Below are positions 30,471-39,647 of a stretch of 54,392 nucleotides of DNA, in pieces. A program made the position numbers and the translations under genes. The notes beneath the pieces were generated by a model. That model made no database searches, had not been told where the DNA came from, and saw only the letters and a program-made list of their open reading frames with translations. Positions within the stretch are counted from its first letter, which is position 1. Each line of letters opens with the position of its first letter. Origin of the DNA: an uncultured Rickettsiales bacterium. GTDB taxonomy: Bacteria; Pseudomonadota; Alphaproteobacteria; CAJXXZ01; CAZLVD01. The DNA lies in contig CAZLVD010000001.1 of assembly GCA_964563095.1 (NCBI GenBank), positions 122,494 to 176,885 of the forward strand, written 5' to 3'.

Positions 30471-31175
30471 GTGTTTACAGAAATCATGAATTATGTTTTA
30501 CCTAGAACATGTTTAGTGTGCGAATGTACGTTATGGCAATCAGATTCTGAAAATATTATTTGTTATGAGTGTTTTAATAAAATGAAATGGATTACAAATC
30601 CTGTATGTGTCAAATGTAATAAACATATGCATATTATTAGTCTTGATAACAAATGTTGCGATATATGTGAATTGAATAAATGGGCTTACGATAAATTAAT
30701 AGCCTCTGTATATTATGATGATTATGCTGCTAAAATTGCGATGAAACTGAAATATAGAGGCATGGGAGCGGAATTTATAGCTAAAATGATTAGTAATAAA
30801 TGTGAAAGCAAACCTGATTATATACTATCCATACCATTACATTCTACTCGACTACTGAAAAGAGGATTTAATCAATCAGAATTAATAGCTGTAGCGCTAT
30901 CTAAAATCATGCATGTTGATTACATACCTGCTCTTGAGCGTATATATTATACTAAATCTCAAGGTGGCTTAACTCAAAAAGAGCGTTTGAAGAATGTGAC
31001 TAATGCTTTTACAGTGAAATATGAATGGATGCAGGATTTAAAAGATAAAAACGTTTTATTGATAGATGATGTGATGACTACAGGAGCCACAGTACACGCT
31101 GCGTCTTTAGCATTATCTTCAGCGCATGTATCATCGATTATTATAGGTGTATGGGCTAAGCGTGATTTGGATTAA
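30471..31175 (+). CDS. comF: ComF-family phosphoribosyltransferase-like protein (ComFC)
   Basis: N-terminal double CxxC zinc finger (CLVCEC...CYEC, CVKC...CDIC). HSTRLLKRGFNQSELIA. PRTase loop VLLIDDVMTTGAT. Start is GTG 30471 or ATG 30486. Confidence 0.75.
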   Translation: MFTEIMNYVLPRTCLVCECTLWQSDSENIICYECFNKMKWITNPVCVKCNKHMHIISLDNKCCDICELNKWAYDKLIASVYYDDYAAKIAMKLKYRGMGAEFIAKMISNKCESKPDYILSIPLHSTRLLKRGFNQSELIAVALSKIMHVDYIPALERIYYTKSQGGLTQKERLKNVTNAFTVKYEWMQDLKDKNVLLIDDVMTTGATVHAASLALSSAHVSSIIIGVWAKRDLD

Positions 31176-31278: not shown

Positions 31279-31350
31279 TGGGAACAGTAGGGATCGAACC
31301 TACGACATCTACAACGTCAATGTAGCGCTCTACCGCTGAGCTATGTACCC
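31279..31350 (-). tRNA. tRNA-Val (anticodon GAC)
   Basis: Reverse complement GGGTACATAGCTCAGCGGTAGAGCGCTACATTGACGTTGTAGATGTCGTAGGTTCGATCCCTACTGTTCCCA. Anticodon loop is TTGACGT. One U-U mismatch in the acceptor stem. Confidence 0.85.
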
Positions 31351-31503: not shown

Positions 31504-31713
31504 ATGTATGCAGGAGTAAAAGTGGCAGTACCTAAAAAGAAAACGAGCTTGCGTAGAGGTAGACTCAGAAGAACACATTATGTTGTAAGACAATTAGCAA
31601 AAGGTAAATGCAGTCAATGCGGACATCATACAGTAAATTTTACAGCTTGTAATGCATGTGGTTTCTATAAAAACAGATCATATGCTTCAGTGTTAAATGT
31701 AAAAGCAGTTTAA
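31504..31713 (+). CDS. rpmF: 50S ribosomal protein L32
   Basis: VAVPKKKTSLRRGRLRR plus the CxxC...CxxC zinc ribbon (CSQCGH...CNACGFY). The true start may be the GTG at 31522. Confidence 0.8.
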   Translation: MYAGVKVAVPKKKTSLRRGRLRRTHYVVRQLAKGKCSQCGHHTVNFTACNACGFYKNRSYASVLNVKAV

Positions 31714-31800: not shown

Positions 31801-33117
31801 TTATTTATAATAAATTACTACAGTGTATTTTAATAACATACCTTCAAGTGTAGACGTAATATTGATATTATTTGAATTGGTAATTTTCATAAATTCTTCT
31901 TGTAAATGCTGAGTAAAATCTATTGTATCCTGATATGTGCGTGGTTTTTTAATTTTCATTACAATAGTCGTTTTATTCTGCATATATTGTACTGAAGTAA
32001 TGATAGGTTTTAGTTGATCAAAGATACTTATTATATGCATGAGATATTGCTGTTCTGTTTTACGTCGAGAAAGCATATCATTAATACGTGATACATGTGC
32101 ATAAGTTGGTACTGTAGTATTTACAAACATACTTTGCATAGACTGAGTGATAGTTTGTCTTTCAGAATAATATTGTGTCACTTGATGATTATATTGCTTA
32201 ATATTTAGTTGTAAAAAAATACATGCGAATACAGATATACTCATACCAATATATACATAAATATTCTTAATACCAGATTGTATAAATGGTATATTAGTAT
32301 CTTTATCTATTTGTATTTTTAAATCAGTCAATTTGCAATAATCAGCTGTCTTTTTGATAAATATATCGCTGTATGTATTGTATAAATATTCAAAAATATT
32401 TGACTGAGCTAACTCTAAAGAGAGTAGATTTCTATCAAATGTTGGATGCATTGTAGGATCTATATGTTCTATATAAATCCAGTTATCTATACAAGTTTCT
32501 GTGATAATTTGCTCAGATTCTTCTACTATAATTTTGATTAAATATTTCGAATCATTAGTAAATTGCTTAAGATATACAGAGGTTTCTAGTATATCTGAGA
32601 ATAATGTATGTCTATTTGGATGAAATGCTCTACATGTGATTAATTGCTTATCTATAACTCCAAGGCAGATGTATTGATTAGTATCTTTATCGTAATATAA
32701 ATACAAACCTGTTTTCAAATCTAAAATACTTAAATGTTTAAGTAATATAAGAGCTTTCCAAGAAATAGCATGTATAATATCTGCAAAAGCATATATCATG
32801 TCTTTGATATCGCCTGCAGCCAACCATACAGTACATGTATTAATACGATATGTATAAGTCAGCTCATTGGACATAAGTAGATTTTTACTATGATATATTT
32901 CCCAATATTCTCTATCTTTCGATTTCAAATTTTCTGGAACTTTTTTACTATAAATATATGCGGCATTATAATCAAAAATTATATCTAACATCAGCTGATT
33001 ATCATCTGCGTATGCTAAAGCAGCACGTAGTGAATCTTCATAAATAATATGATCATGCGATACTATTTTTGTATTCAAATCAGATGATACAAAACATGTG
33101 CAAAGTTTTCTATGCAT
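31801..33117 (-). CDS. Hypothetical bitopic membrane protein, candidate fused PilM/PilN-like or GspL-like assembly component
   Basis: 438 aa. About 285 aa of cytoplasmic region, a single TM segment (IYVYIGMSISVFACIFLQLNI), then a helical stretch and a C-terminal alpha/beta module of about 60 aa. Third gene after pilB-like and pilC-like on the same strand. Confidence 0.4.
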   Translation of the reverse strand: MHRKLCTCFVSSDLNTKIVSHDHIIYEDSLRAALAYADDNQLMLDIIFDYNAAYIYSKKVPENLKSKDREYWEIYHSKNLLMSNELTYTYRINTCTVWLAAGDIKDMIYAFADIIHAISWKALILLKHLSILDLKTGLYLYYDKDTNQYICLGVIDKQLITCRAFHPNRHTLFSDILETSVYLKQFTNDSKYLIKIIVEESEQIITETCIDNWIYIEHIDPTMHPTFDRNLLSLELAQSNIFEYLYNTYSDIFIKKTADYCKLTDLKIQIDKDTNIPFIQSGIKNIYVYIGMSISVFACIFLQLNIKQYNHQVTQYYSERQTITQSMQSMFVNTTVPTYAHVSRINDMLSRRKTEQQYLMHIISIFDQLKPIITSVQYMQNKTTIVMKIKKPRTYQDTIDFTQHLQEEFMKITNSNNINITSTLEGMLLKYTVVIYYK

Positions 33118-33196
33118 GATAACCTTTCAGAATATATTAAACGAATGTATATATTTTGTAAACAATAAAAGTAAAATTTTCATAAATTATAATAAA

Positions 33197-34372
33197 TTAT
33201 AATAAATTGGTGAGAGAAGAGTAAATAGGTATGATGCCACCAAAAATGATGATCAAGAATAAAATACCTACTATAGCTAATATGATGGGCTGTATCATTG
33301 TAGTCAATATATTTAATTTAGCATTTAAATTTTCTTGATACATTTCAGATAATTGCTCAGCATTCATTGCTATAGAAGCTGCATTTGTAGAAATACATAA
33401 TAACTGTTTACTTTCTTCTGGAAGGAAATTACTTGCCATGAAGGTATCTTCTAGACTTTGTCCTGATAATAAGTTCTTTTTCATATTTGTAATGTCTGCT
33501 GTAAATTTTGGATGTATAAATTCTTCAATACATTCTAATGCTGTCAATAATGGTATTTGTTGATTGAGCAATCTAGATAATGTCTTAAAGAAAATAATCA
33601 AATAATATTCATGTACTAATGTCTTGATATATGGAGTATTAAATAGTATTTTTTCATTTAATTGATAATATCTATTGATTATCATATATGTTATAACGCT
33701 TGCTATGATTAAACATAATATTATTACATAATGCTTAGCTATTGTTTCGCCTGTATTAGATAAGATTTGCGTGAGTAAAGGCACCTTACCATTCATTTCT
33801 TTAATCATTTGAGCGAATGTAGGTATTAATGATGTGATAAAATAGATTATCATAGGTATTGCTAGAGTTAATGTAACAATTGGATAATATAGAGCAGCTT
33901 TACATTTTGCTTTAAAATTCAACAGAAAATCATAATGCGAGCGTAAGAATCCGAATGCAGCCGTTAGATTACCTGTTTTTTCAGACAGGGCTATAGTATT
34001 CACAAAAATACGATCTTGGCAGATATTACTTTCTGAAAATGCTTGCGATAATTGATCACCCATATCTAATCTATGTTTTAATAATCTAGATACATGTGCG
34101 ATTTTATTATTGATACTTTTTGACATAATATCTAAAGCTATAGATAATTCCAATCCGGATTGTAACAATTGAGAAAGTGAATTACACCAAGTAGCTATTT
34201 CTGCATGTGATAAATGAGTCGTGCCAAAAGATGATGTGAAAGCTTTTTTTACTGTCAATACATACAAAGATTGATTGATCAAAGATTTCTTTACTGATTC
34301 TTCTGATTGAGCTTCTATATATCCTGCGTGTTTTTTACCTAAGTGATCTATAGCTTCATATTTGAAAAACAT
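33197..34372 (-). CDS. pilC: Type IV pilus / type II secretion platform protein (PilC/GspF family)
   Basis: 391 aa. The N-terminus FKYEAIDHLGKKHAGYIEAQSEESVKKSLINQSLYV is typical of the family. Duplicated T2SS-F architecture with 3 hydrophobic segments. Confidence 0.8.
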   Translation of the reverse strand: MFFKYEAIDHLGKKHAGYIEAQSEESVKKSLINQSLYVLTVKKAFTSSFGTTHLSHAEIATWCNSLSQLLQSGLELSIALDIMSKSINNKIAHVSRLLKHRLDMGDQLSQAFSESNICQDRIFVNTIALSEKTGNLTAAFGFLRSHYDFLLNFKAKCKAALYYPIVTLTLAIPMIIYFITSLIPTFAQMIKEMNGKVPLLTQILSNTGETIAKHYVIILCLIIASVITYMIINRYYQLNEKILFNTPYIKTLVHEYYLIIFFKTLSRLLNQQIPLLTALECIEEFIHPKFTADITNMKKNLLSGQSLEDTFMASNFLPEESKQLLCISTNAASIAMNAEQLSEMYQENLNAKLNILTTMIQPIILAIVGILFLIIIFGGIIPIYSSLTNLL

Positions 34373-34541
34373 TTTTACTCCTCTTTCTTCTACATGATTT
34401 TGTTTTAAAAATTGTTATTTTAATTAAAAAAAATACACAATATTCTTTTATTAAACTTACATCTTTATATTGATTATAGTGTTGCAGCAATAAAAAACTC
34501 TAAAGCTGTAAGTTAAATAAAATAATCTATACATTTGTTAT

Positions 34542-36188
34542 TTATATTAATAAATGTATACGATTCACTTCATCAAGACTTGTTTCCATAGTAATGATTT
34601 TATGTTTCATAGCATCATCTAATGGATTGACATAACCTTTGTTGTATAAAATTTGAGACGCTGTATGAATATCATGCTTGACCAAAATATCTCTAATTTC
34701 ATGATTGATATTGAGAATTTGAGCTACAGCCATACGTCCGTTATACCCTGTATATCTACAAGTCTCACATCCCACAGCATCGCAAATTTTCTCACATCTA
34801 TATCCTAAAATATTTTTCTCAATATCTGTTGTTTCTCTCAGCTTTTTACATTTATCGCACAATCTTCGTACTAAACGCTGATTCACGATACCTGTTAAAT
34901 GAGACGAGAGTAGATTTTTATTTATCCCCATATCTTCCATACGATCAAATACACCAAATATATCGCTAGTATGTAATGTAGTTAATACTAATCTACCTGT
35001 CATAGCAGCTCGCATAGCTATATTCGCGGTTTCATTATCACGTATTTCGCTAATAGATATAATATCCGGATCTTGTCTCAATATTGATCGTGCTGCAGAT
35101 GCTATAGTCATTTGTTTATATTGATGTAGATCTGTTTGCCTAAAGTATGGTATTGAATACTCAACAGGATCTTCAATAGTTGTAATACTTACATCAGCTT
35201 TATGCATTTTCAGTAACATTCCACACATTAATGTACTTTTACCTGCTCCTGTAGGACCTGTAACGATAAAAATCCCATGCGTATGTTGAATAATGCTATT
35301 TAGCTGCTCCATATCATGATTTGTATAACCAAGTTTATCTAAAGACATTAATGCTTTCTGTTTATCTAAAATTCTAATGACTGTATTTTCACCATATACA
35401 ACAGGATGAGTAGAAATACGCATATCAATAGTCTTTCCAAAGATTTGCATACTAAAATGTCCATCTTGAGAAGAGAGTGTATGAGAAATATCCATATTTG
35501 CTAGCACTTTAATACGAACACAGAGATTTTTCCATTTATCTTTAGGTATCAGACATAATTGACTTAATACTCCATCAATACGCACTCTAATTCTCACAAA
35601 AAATTCTTCAGGTTCAAAATGTATATCACTCGCGCGTTTCTTGACACAATCAGTAAGTAAAGCGGATAAAATATTCATAGCAAAACTTTCATCAATACTA
35701 TACTGCTGATCAAGTATTTGCATCCAATGAATAATTGTTTTGTGTTCAGAAAAAGTATCTTCGATTACTTCAAGTAATTGTTGTTGATTAGTGAGCATGT
35801 AAATAATTTGTTTGCCTGGAAAATTCTGCTTTAGTTGATCCTTAATATGTAATTCTAATTGTTGAGCTATAGCAATAGATATAGTATTATCTTCGATATC
35901 AAACGCTAACAGATTATTTTTGATACAATATTCTTTATTCAACTTGCGAGCTATATTAGTCTTTATATCAACAAATTTTATATCCACAGTTTTTATATTA
36001 TCTTTTTGACTTAGAATTTGCATGAGAGTACTAGAAGCTATGAAATTCATAGTGACTAGTAATTGCTCAATGGTATTATTAGTATTTATTGTTGCGAGCT
36101 TTATAATATGACTCTGATCAGGGGTAATAAATCCATTCTGTTCTAAATATTCTAATAAATCTGATTTTAAATCTATAGATTGATTCAT
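34542..36188 (-). CDS. pilB: Type IV pilus / type II secretion assembly ATPase (PilB/GspE family)
   Basis: 548 aa. N-terminal T2SSE_N-like helices, Walker A GPTGAGKST, Walker B/Asp box DPDIISISEIRD, His box TGRLVLTTLHT, and tetracysteine CDKC...CETC. Confidence 0.85.
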   Translation of the reverse strand: MNQSIDLKSDLLEYLEQNGFITPDQSHIIKLATINTNNTIEQLLVTMNFIASSTLMQILSQKDNIKTVDIKFVDIKTNIARKLNKEYCIKNNLLAFDIEDNTISIAIAQQLELHIKDQLKQNFPGKQIIYMLTNQQQLLEVIEDTFSEHKTIIHWMQILDQQYSIDESFAMNILSALLTDCVKKRASDIHFEPEEFFVRIRVRIDGVLSQLCLIPKDKWKNLCVRIKVLANMDISHTLSSQDGHFSMQIFGKTIDMRISTHPVVYGENTVIRILDKQKALMSLDKLGYTNHDMEQLNSIIQHTHGIFIVTGPTGAGKSTLMCGMLLKMHKADVSITTIEDPVEYSIPYFRQTDLHQYKQMTIASAARSILRQDPDIISISEIRDNETANIAMRAAMTGRLVLTTLHTSDIFGVFDRMEDMGINKNLLSSHLTGIVNQRLVRRLCDKCKKLRETTDIEKNILGYRCEKICDAVGCETCRYTGYNGRMAVAQILNINHEIRDILVKHDIHTASQILYNKGYVNPLDDAMKHKIITMETSLDEVNRIHLLI

Positions 36189-38666: not shown

Positions 38667-39647
38667 ATGCTGAATAAAATATTGATATACTTTATATCTA
38701 TATATAGTCCTTCAGAGCTCACTTCTTCGCAGACTGGCATATCTCAAGAGCGTGCTATGCCTACCGGTAATTCTGATAATATCATACATCGTCTTACCGA
38801 GGTAGATGTATTATTATATAAATTTCAGACTGTATTTAATCTAAATATGAATAAAGAGTCATATAGAAGAGTAGCTAGCATTATACAATTACATATGACT
38901 CATGAGTATTCAAGATTCTCGTATTGGAATCATATCAGCGAATTGATTCAATATAATAGAGATATATTACGAAGTGAAGTATCAATTTTATTAAATAGTA
39001 CAGCATTAAGTATATTAATTCATGCTGATGTTATCCTATCTCTTATTGAGACAAATTGCATACAGAAGAATATTATTAATGATAAAACATTACTGTATAA
39101 AATAGCGTTTTTAATAGATCCGCAGAATAATTTATTTGCTTGTAAGCCTGCGAGTATTGTAGGAGAATTGATGAGACAATCAACAGTGCAGAGCTCGCAG
39201 CAACATCATTCAGTCTTATCATGTGAGCAGTTACATCAACATCAACAGTGCTCGCAGCAGTATAGGATGCAGTTAAAATCACATATTCTGATGAGTTATA
39301 CGTATTTGAATCATATTCATTATATTACATCTGCAGGTTATAATATACTCAATCAAAGACAAGGTAATATATGCAGTTCCGATATTTCATATGAGATATA
39401 TTTATTTATCTATAAAGCTATACATATTTTGCATGGTTTAAATTGCGATATACAGCTAAAAAAGTTTTTCTTCAGACATGATTTAGCATTATTACAAAGT
39501 TTAATGATATTACATATGTTTATTATACATATGAAAGAATGTAAGCAAATTGAATATTGTATCATTTTGGAACACATACATGGTATTTTTGAGACAAGTC
39601 CGCTATATGCTTTGTTAGATAATAATTTTAATAAAGATAAAGCTTGA
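38667..39647 (+). CDS. Hypothetical protein (326 aa) with a leader-like N-terminus and a Q/H-rich centre
   Basis: Intact ORF. N-terminus is MLNKILIYFISIYS and the central stretch is QSSQQHHSVLSCEQLHQHQQCSQQ. I recognise no family. Confidence 0.4.
   Translation: MLNKILIYFISIYSPSELTSSQTGISQERAMPTGNSDNIIHRLTEVDVLLYKFQTVFNLNMNKESYRRVASIIQLHMTHEYSRFSYWNHISELIQYNRDILRSEVSILLNSTALSILIHADVILSLIETNCIQKNIINDKTLLYKIAFLIDPQNNLFACKPASIVGELMRQSTVQSSQQHHSVLSCEQLHQHQQCSQQYRMQLKSHILMSYTYLNHIHYITSAGYNILNQRQGNICSSDISYEIYLFIYKAIHILHGLNCDIQLKKFFFRHDLALLQSLMILHMFIIHMKECKQIEYCIILEHIHGIFETSPLYALLDNNFNKDKA

Follow-up and report, generated by a model that had tools for sequence, protein, structure and literature searches.

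What does the motor of a type IV filament do in a strongly reduced genome when no pilin, peptidase or secretin gene lies near it? The question is raised by three genes in a 54,392 bp window (the whole stretch of DNA analysed here; positions 122494-176885 of contig C1) from an uncultured alphaproteobacterium, encoding a PilB/GspE-type assembly ATPase, a PilC/GspF-type inner-membrane platform and a bitopic orphan protein. The assembly, designated G000, comprises 539,352 b in 9 contigs with a GC content of ~31% and is 76% complete, which bears out the original prediction of a reduced genome; the bearer of so small a genome is probably an endosymbiont. The favoured answer, held with fair rather than strong confidence, is that the triad is the motor of a minimal type IV filament machine with scattered genes, and that the orphan is its clamp. 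The putative partners are encoded elsewhere in the genome, and the locus is therefore regarded as holding the motor of a split system and not as a partnerless motor. It is a filament system of a kind already published for related endosymbionts and not a new kind of machine.

The motor genes

The triad consists of three co-oriented open reading frames (ORFs) on the minus strand, separated by intergenic gaps of 169 and 79 nt (Table 1). The ATPase matches Pfam T2SSE with an E value of 3.7e-104 (348.8 bits; cut-off 24.9), carries a single N-terminal MshEN domain (Pfam E 4.7e-10), and is the sole T2SSE-family ATPase in the assembly. Its translation contains a Walker A motif (GPTGAGKST), a His box (TLHT) and two CxxC pairs (CDKC and CETC). 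Two stretches of the platform match Pfam T2SSF (E 2.8e-31, 108.5 bits), and the protein has three hydrophobic segments. These matches and motifs, together with the topology of the third protein, uphold the gene identities that had been proposed for all three. Against the NCBIfam equivalogs GspE, PilB, GspF, PilC and MshL all scores fall far below the cut-offs; the ATPase scores 389 bits against GspE (TIGR02533; cut-off 630) and 381 bits against PilB (TIGR02538; cut-off 676), and the platform 164 bits against GspF (TIGR02120; cut-off 424).

The ATPase was placed among the PilB and GspE clades, as had been suggested, in a tree of 55 proteins comprising 18 GspE and 11 PilB sequences above the curated cut-offs, 13 intermediates and 13 from the order to which this bacterium belongs. 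The ATPases of the order form one clade (Shimodaira–Hasegawa-like approximate likelihood ratio test, SH-aLRT, 100) outside the GspE (99) and PilB (99) clades. On its sequence the ATPase belongs to a vertically inherited lineage peculiar to the order and distinct from canonical PilB and canonical GspE alike, and the claim is restricted to this because the tree is unrooted and the composition skewed.

As originally noted, there is no pilin, peptidase or secretin gene within ~5 kb on either side of the triad. A relaxed class III leader scan of all window ORFs of at least 40 aa found no credible prepilin, which answers for this locus the concern that a short pilin gene had been missed. A 28-residue leader match at approximately window position 11906 was discarded as spurious.

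Conservation and selection

The comparison includes 12 other genomes of the order (0.4–0.8 Mb), none of which belongs to the same family (f1) as the present one. PilC homologues are present in 11 of the 13 genomes, this one included, and always follow the ATPase gene directly. The order ATPase–platform–bitopic protein recurs in 10 of these 11, with a third gene of 236–438 aa whose membrane segment is situated about two-thirds along; in the eleventh (G002) the third gene is displaced by ~7 kb and still kept. Family f3, with genomes of 0.56–0.63 Mb, has the same triad. A family of large pilin-like proteins, described below, is found in exactly the 11 genomes that carry PilC, and in several genomes of the order a smaller pilin-like gene adjoins the large one. 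A secretin is present in all 13.

Neither PilC nor the pilin family was detected in G003 and G007, two incomplete genomes of family f4. Both encode a short T2SSE ATPase (G003, C8:15311-16024; G007, C51:47285-47980) with open frames of 284–349 aa, and their secretin and ComEC frames are shorter too. Every f3 genome (G002, G006 and G008–G012) has two secretin genes, and there is one in the present genome and in families f2, f4 and f5. In G004 (f5; L029:9355-10213) two small genes come after the 435-aa third gene, and their products, of 168 and 119 aa, both have a membrane segment at the N-terminus; these are possibly PilO/GspM- and PilP-like partners, have no Pfam match, and are without a counterpart after the orphan gene in the window.

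Two close relatives, L102 and L103 (public assemblies), share an unchanged gene order from rpsL to dnaN. The ratios of nonsynonymous to synonymous substitution (dN/dS) against these relatives, which are approximate because dS is saturated, are 0.07–0.08 for the ATPase, 0.09–0.13 for the platform, 0.12–0.17 for the third gene and 0.09–0.11 for ComF. Those of the triad are as low as, or lower than, those of the neighbouring ABC transporter and DciA genes. The frames are intact in all three genomes, with lengths of 548–550, 391 and 438 aa and no frameshifts. Judged by these sequence comparisons the triad genes are under purifying selection and are not decaying, as the original prediction had assumed in taking them to be kept.

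The third protein

The orphan contains an N-terminal domain of ~285 aa, a membrane segment at residues ~287–307, a long helix and a C-terminal domain. It has no match in Pfam, NCBIfam or PDB sequences; there are 4–5 close homologues among 5.8 billion clusters and 10 matches among 1.8 billion representative proteins, and scans of genome contigs with the orphan alignment and with PilB, as well as scans of metagenome contigs, returned no related loci. A hidden Markov model of the orphan family finds no match among the ORFs neighbouring pilC in other genomes of the order. In a profile–profile comparison the orphan matches the gene after pilC in family f3 with 96.9% probability (E 1.3e-10), and its counterparts in f2 and f5 are positional only, with no detectable homology. 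Pfam gives no match for seven third genes or neighbours in other genomes of the order, nor is there a match to T2SSL (PF05134) or PilM_2 (PF11104) in this genome.

Two AlphaFold runs with 4–5 sequences produced orphan models with mean predicted local distance difference test (pLDDT) values of 37 and 42. In these low-confidence models the N-terminal domain contains two beta-beta-beta-alpha-beta units (residues 4–48 and 137–197), followed by a long membrane/coiled helix and a C-terminal alpha-beta-beta-alpha-beta-beta (ferredoxin-like) domain at pLDDT ~70. Foldseek searches with the N-terminal domain model (pLDDT 42) return mainly actin-like ATPase folds headed by 3hrg (E 1.5e-4); the cytoplasmic domain of PulL/GspL (5tkw) ranks second (E 9e-3; template modelling score, TM, ~0.2) and PilM of the type IVa pilus machine (3jc8) 43rd, also with a TM near 0.2. 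The first full-length model is uninformative in the same search, with the PulM C-terminal domain 19th amid generic ferredoxin-like matches. The topology and the order of secondary structure elements in the low-confidence models agree with a bitopic architecture of the GspL or PilM–PilN type. From topology, synteny and weak fold evidence the orphan is most likely a motor clamp of this type, and a fused PilM/PilN- or GspL-like protein, as proposed at the outset, would be the best description of it.

Candidate partner genes elsewhere in the genome

A strict scan of the whole genome for class III leaders with Gly at −1 yielded nothing credible. A relaxed scan admitting Ala, Ser or Gly at this position, together with an N_methyl search, recovered three prepilin-like genes (Table 1), all of which have Ala for the usual Gly at −1, Glu at +5 and then ~20 hydrophobic residues. 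In G012 the orthologue of the large pilin-like protein scores 23.6 bits against N_methyl, above the curated cut-off. The small pilin-like ORF of the present genome does not match GspG. The large proteins (417–480 aa) have big, fast-evolving C-terminal parts. Their genes are adjacent paralogues (C3:52371-55192), with 41% identity over the first 140 residues and a common Cys-rich motif (H.CLPYPC.P) directly past the N-terminal helix.

The candidate A24 peptidase is polytopic and short, with the Asp motifs SLQDF and GEAD (GxxD) and a C-terminal IPMxP, and is without a methyltransferase domain. These motifs are largely common to short counterparts in G004 and G001, where the gene adjoins that of the secretin; the G012 copy is poorly aligned at the Asp motifs. 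The secretin has the MSHA secretin MshL as its best NCBIfam match (93 bits, under the equivalog cut-off).

Given three prepilin-like genes, a candidate A24 peptidase and a secretin in the same genome, the idea of a motor without partners fails, and that of a non-canonical set of partners is not supported. An ordinary split type IV pilus, which the original prediction named as the outcome that would overturn it, comes close to what is found in that the parts do lie elsewhere, but they are scattered singly and form no canonical pil or gsp operon. The genome search that had been proposed thus succeeds for pilin-like genes, a candidate peptidase, a secretin, comEC and dprA, and fails for pilT and comEA. 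All such absences are provisional because 24% of the genome is missing from the assembly.

Table 1. Locations of the motor genes, their putative partners and other features. A slash in a leader marks the boundary between residues −1 and +1; prepilin sizes are counted from the Met nearest the leader.
Feature	Location	Strand	Size (aa)	Family match or leader
PilB/GspE-type assembly ATPase	window 34542-36188	−	548	Pfam T2SSE + MshEN
PilC/GspF-type inner-membrane platform	window 33197-34372	−	391	Pfam T2SSF
Bitopic protein without family (orphan)	window 31801-33117	−	438	Open reading frame, single hydrophobic segment
Prepilin-like protein	within ORF C3:53924-55192		417	Leader MKKDVSQQTMSA/YTLIEISISL...
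Prepilin-like protein	within ORF C3:52371-53909		480	Leader ...KKLSA/YSMIEVSISL...
Prepilin-like protein	within ORF C3:21470-21937		148	Leader ...KQLQA/VSLIEVSFVM...
Candidate A24 peptidase, short, polytopic	C1:38468-38947		140–160	Sub-threshold Peptidase_A24
Secretin, MshL-like	C3:87016-88755			Pfam Secretin, 48.9 bits (cut-off 27.5)
ComEC	C3:49160-51160			132.9 bits
Gene-transfer-agent-like head cluster	C3:22363-25292	same as C3:21470-21937		Portal PF04860 (E 4.9e-48), prohead protease PF04586, HK97-type capsid PF05065
ComF (ComFC/GntX-like)	window 30471-31175	+		Pfam DZR_2 + Pribosyltran above cut-offs
tRNA-Val	window 31279-31350			
rpmF	window 31504-31713			
orf326	window 38667-39647	+	326	No family match

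DNA-import genes and the gene-transfer-agent-like cluster

In addition to ComEC, the genome encodes DprA (236 bits), ComM (397 bits; cut-off 362) and RecA (399 bits). ComF is counted in the DNA-import set by its Pfam domains only, its score of 91 bits against TIGR00201 (comF) being under the cut-off of 233. All 13 genomes of the order have ComEC and DprA, and this order-wide presence, together with ComM, RecA and ComF in the present genome, favours a role in DNA uptake. The ComEC gene is located ~1.2 kb from the pair of large pilin-like genes, with gmk and a 174-aa ORF between them.

The small pilin-like gene is directly followed downstream by a cluster of portal, prohead protease and capsid genes resembling the head genes of a gene transfer agent. 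In Rhodobacter capsulatus, ComEC, ComF, ComM and DprA are required for gene transfer agent reception. A published study of such agents in these endosymbionts leaves com genes unmentioned.

Neighbouring genes

The flanks of ~5 kb contain, besides comF, tRNA-Val and rpmF, only genes for DciA, an ABC transporter, an orphan ORF (orf326), rpsL, rpsM/rpsK and ClpX. The comF gene is 626 bp from the triad, beyond rpmF and tRNA-Val, which matches the ~0.6 kb first reported, and faces it in convergent orientation. In L102 (8917-11186) two extra ORFs of 376 and 315 aa without a family are situated between rpmF and comF, and in L103 (9178-10260) a single one of 360 aa. The window has no such ORFs, the interval being occupied by tRNA-Val alone. 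Closeness to comF was rejected as evidence for an operon since the gene is convergent and extra ORFs intervene in the relatives, and comF is neighbourhood context outside the operon, possibly a member of the DNA-import set. For the same reasons, and because the gene-transfer-agent-like heads could account for the ComEC set just as well, its proximity is a weak functional hint.

The gene orf326 lies between the ABC transporter gene and rpsL. It has 16–27% identity to its positional counterparts in two relatives, in which the neighbouring genes are 70–99% identical, and is to judge from these values a very fast-evolving orphan.

Proposed mechanism and alternatives

In the proposed mechanism the triad drives, from the cytoplasmic membrane, a pilus or pseudopilus machine that is minimal yet complete and whose genes are scattered. 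The PilB-type hexameric ATPase would be the energy source, and the PilC-type platform would pass the energy on. The orphan would act like GspL or a PilM–PilN fusion, with its cytoplasmic, probably actin-like domain tethering the ATPase to the membrane and its periplasmic ferredoxin-like domain coupling the motor to the envelope. The Ala(−1) prepilin-like proteins (one small and two large), the short A24 candidate and the MshL-like secretin would be supplied from elsewhere in the genome, and a short filament may be assembled through the secretin. The purpose of such a filament is the least certain step; it may be DNA uptake, or secretion or adhesion directed at the host. Outer-membrane DNA uptake feeding a ComEC–ComF–ComM–DprA–RecA pathway is a serious candidate function, with a probability somewhat short of even.

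Several observations count against the proposed machine or against its role in DNA uptake. The N_methyl scores of the prepilin-like proteins in this genome (13–19 bits) are under the cut-off of 21.2, and those of the candidate A24 peptidase (20.8–21.6 bits) under that of 26.5. The clamp assignment draws on models of low confidence (pLDDT 37 and 42) and on weak Foldseek matches (TM ~0.2), and hhalign comparisons of the orphan with self-made alignments of GspL (32 sequences, some of the ORFs perhaps mis-picked), PilM (30) and PilN (26) give 8.9% at best. The 76%-complete assembly yielded neither PilT nor any T2SSE ATPase besides that of the triad, and no component of the PilO, PilP, GspC or GspM type was recognised, GspC and GspM not having been searched with their own models. 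ComEA was likewise not found in this assembly, where HHH_3 occurs only below threshold inside long unrelated ORFs. The adjacency of ComEC and the pilin-like pair was rejected as evidence of linkage, as it fails to recur in other genomes; ComEC and DprA persist in the two f4 genomes though PilC and pilins are undetected there; and the ComEC set could instead serve the entry of DNA from gene transfer agents.

The same machine could instead be directed at the host and have no DNA role, either exporting exoproteins or effectors through the secretin in the manner of a type II secretion system (T2SS) or displaying the large pilin-like proteins as adhesins in the host cytoplasm. This is a substantial minority possibility, to which something over a third of the weight may be given. 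It would be consistent with the failure to find PilT and ComEA, with the GspL-like architecture of the orphan and the PulL/GspL domain as its second-best fold match, and with the length and the big, fast-evolving C-termini of the large pilin-like proteins; gene transfer agent reception can explain the ComEC set, and secretion or adhesion is the published suggestion for related genomes. Yet no GspC, GspG-type major pseudopilin, GspM or GspD-type secretin is recognised (for GspC and GspM, again, own models were not used), the GspE and GspF equivalog cut-offs are widely missed, the ATPase falls outside the GspE clade, and no substrate has been identified.

That the ATPase and platform alone form the motor, as in monoderm Com pili, and that the third gene encodes an unrelated lineage-specific membrane protein, is improbable. 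The orphan does lack sequence or profile similarity to GspL, PilM and PilN, its positional counterparts in f2 and f5 have no detectable homology to it, and the G002 copy lies ~7 kb from pilC, but in 10 of 11 genomes pilC is followed by a bitopic gene of matching topology, although the rest of the genome is extensively rearranged. Its homology to the f3 gene is significant, its purifying selection is comparable to that of PilC, the models hint at actin-like and ferredoxin-like folds, and a 'pilM' is reported in one Cytomitobacter genome (George et al. 2019). Very improbable is the further possibility that the locus is what remains of an ancestral pilus system, now in decay and without a working machine. 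The strong reduction of the genome, the several canonical components that are unrecognised and the family scores far under the curated cut-offs could be taken in its favour; against it stand intact frames of constant length in three genomes diverged to saturated dS, dN/dS values of 0.07–0.17 next to an orf326 that keeps only 16–27% identity, and the retention of the system across an order of 0.4–0.8 Mb genomes.

Comparison with known systems

A 'reduced T2SS/T4P' (T4P, type IV pilus) comprising gspF, gspD, pilB and pilQ, and once pilM, has been described in Ca. Cytomitobacter and Ca. Nesciobacter (George et al. 2019, bioRxiv 10.1101/719211), Holosporaceae endosymbionts of diplonemids with AT-rich genomes of ~0.6 Mb (bioRxiv 10.1101/719211), and 'incomplete type IV pili' occur in most Holosporales (Dittmer et al. 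2023, PMC9992710). The present genome is like those of the Holosporaceae endosymbionts in being tiny and AT-rich and in containing pilB, gspF and secretin genes. Whereas the published sets have four or five genes and are termed reduced or incomplete, here pilin-like genes, an A24-like peptidase and a third motor gene have been identified, and from its gene content the set looks functionally complete. It also belongs to a separate family, has one secretin and consists of more dispersed parts.

The triad is similar to the GspE–GspF–GspL–GspM platform of the T2SS in that its ATPase carries an N-terminal domain and its platform is polytopic, and a bitopic protein of ~400 aa with predicted actin-like cytoplasmic and ferredoxin-like periplasmic domains would correspond to GspL. 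As in the T2SS, no retraction ATPase is found and there is an outer-membrane secretin. However, the ATPase and platform score below the GspE and GspF equivalog cut-offs, the ATPase is outside the GspE clade and T2SSL has no match; GspC, GspG and GspM are unrecognised (GspC and GspM without searches by their own models), and the secretin matches MshL best, not GspD.

With the machines of mannose-sensitive haemagglutinin (MSHA) and type IVa pili the system shares the MshEN domain on the ATPase, the MshL-like secretin and, in its prepilin-like proteins, class III-type leaders with Glu at +5. It differs from them in that all matches are under the equivalog cut-offs, PilM_2 has no match and PilT was not found, and in its candidate peptidase without a methyltransferase half, its Ala for Gly at −1 and its two pilin-like proteins of 417–480 aa. 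The combination of ComEC, ComF, ComM, DprA and RecA with a portal–protease–capsid cluster recalls competence pili and the recipients of alphaproteobacterial gene transfer agents; unlike in competence pili, ComEA and PilT were not found and linkage between pilus and com genes is not conserved.

Implications

The published description of such systems is extended by the Ala(−1) pilin-like genes and their distribution alongside PilC, a half-size A24-like peptidase, an ATPase clade of its own, a conserved third gene of the motor with its likely fold, and the order-wide retention of DNA-import genes. If the machine works, it would set a lower bound for the parts list of a diderm type IV filament, with no PilT, no recognisable PilNOP or GspCM, one fused clamp and a half-size peptidase, and the 'incomplete pili' of Holosporales-type endosymbionts would be complete but unrecognised. 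DNA import and recombination in obligate endosymbionts becomes directly testable. A bolder and unlikely extension is that a seven-part machine (ATPase, platform, fused L-like clamp, three Ala(−1) pilins, half-size peptidase and secretin), together with ComEC, ComF, ComM, DprA and RecA and perhaps the gene-transfer-agent heads, constitutes a DNA-exchange system among endosymbionts co-resident in one host cell. If true, it would be the smallest diderm pilus machine known, and genomes of 0.5–0.8 Mb could recombine, with their mutational decay slowed.

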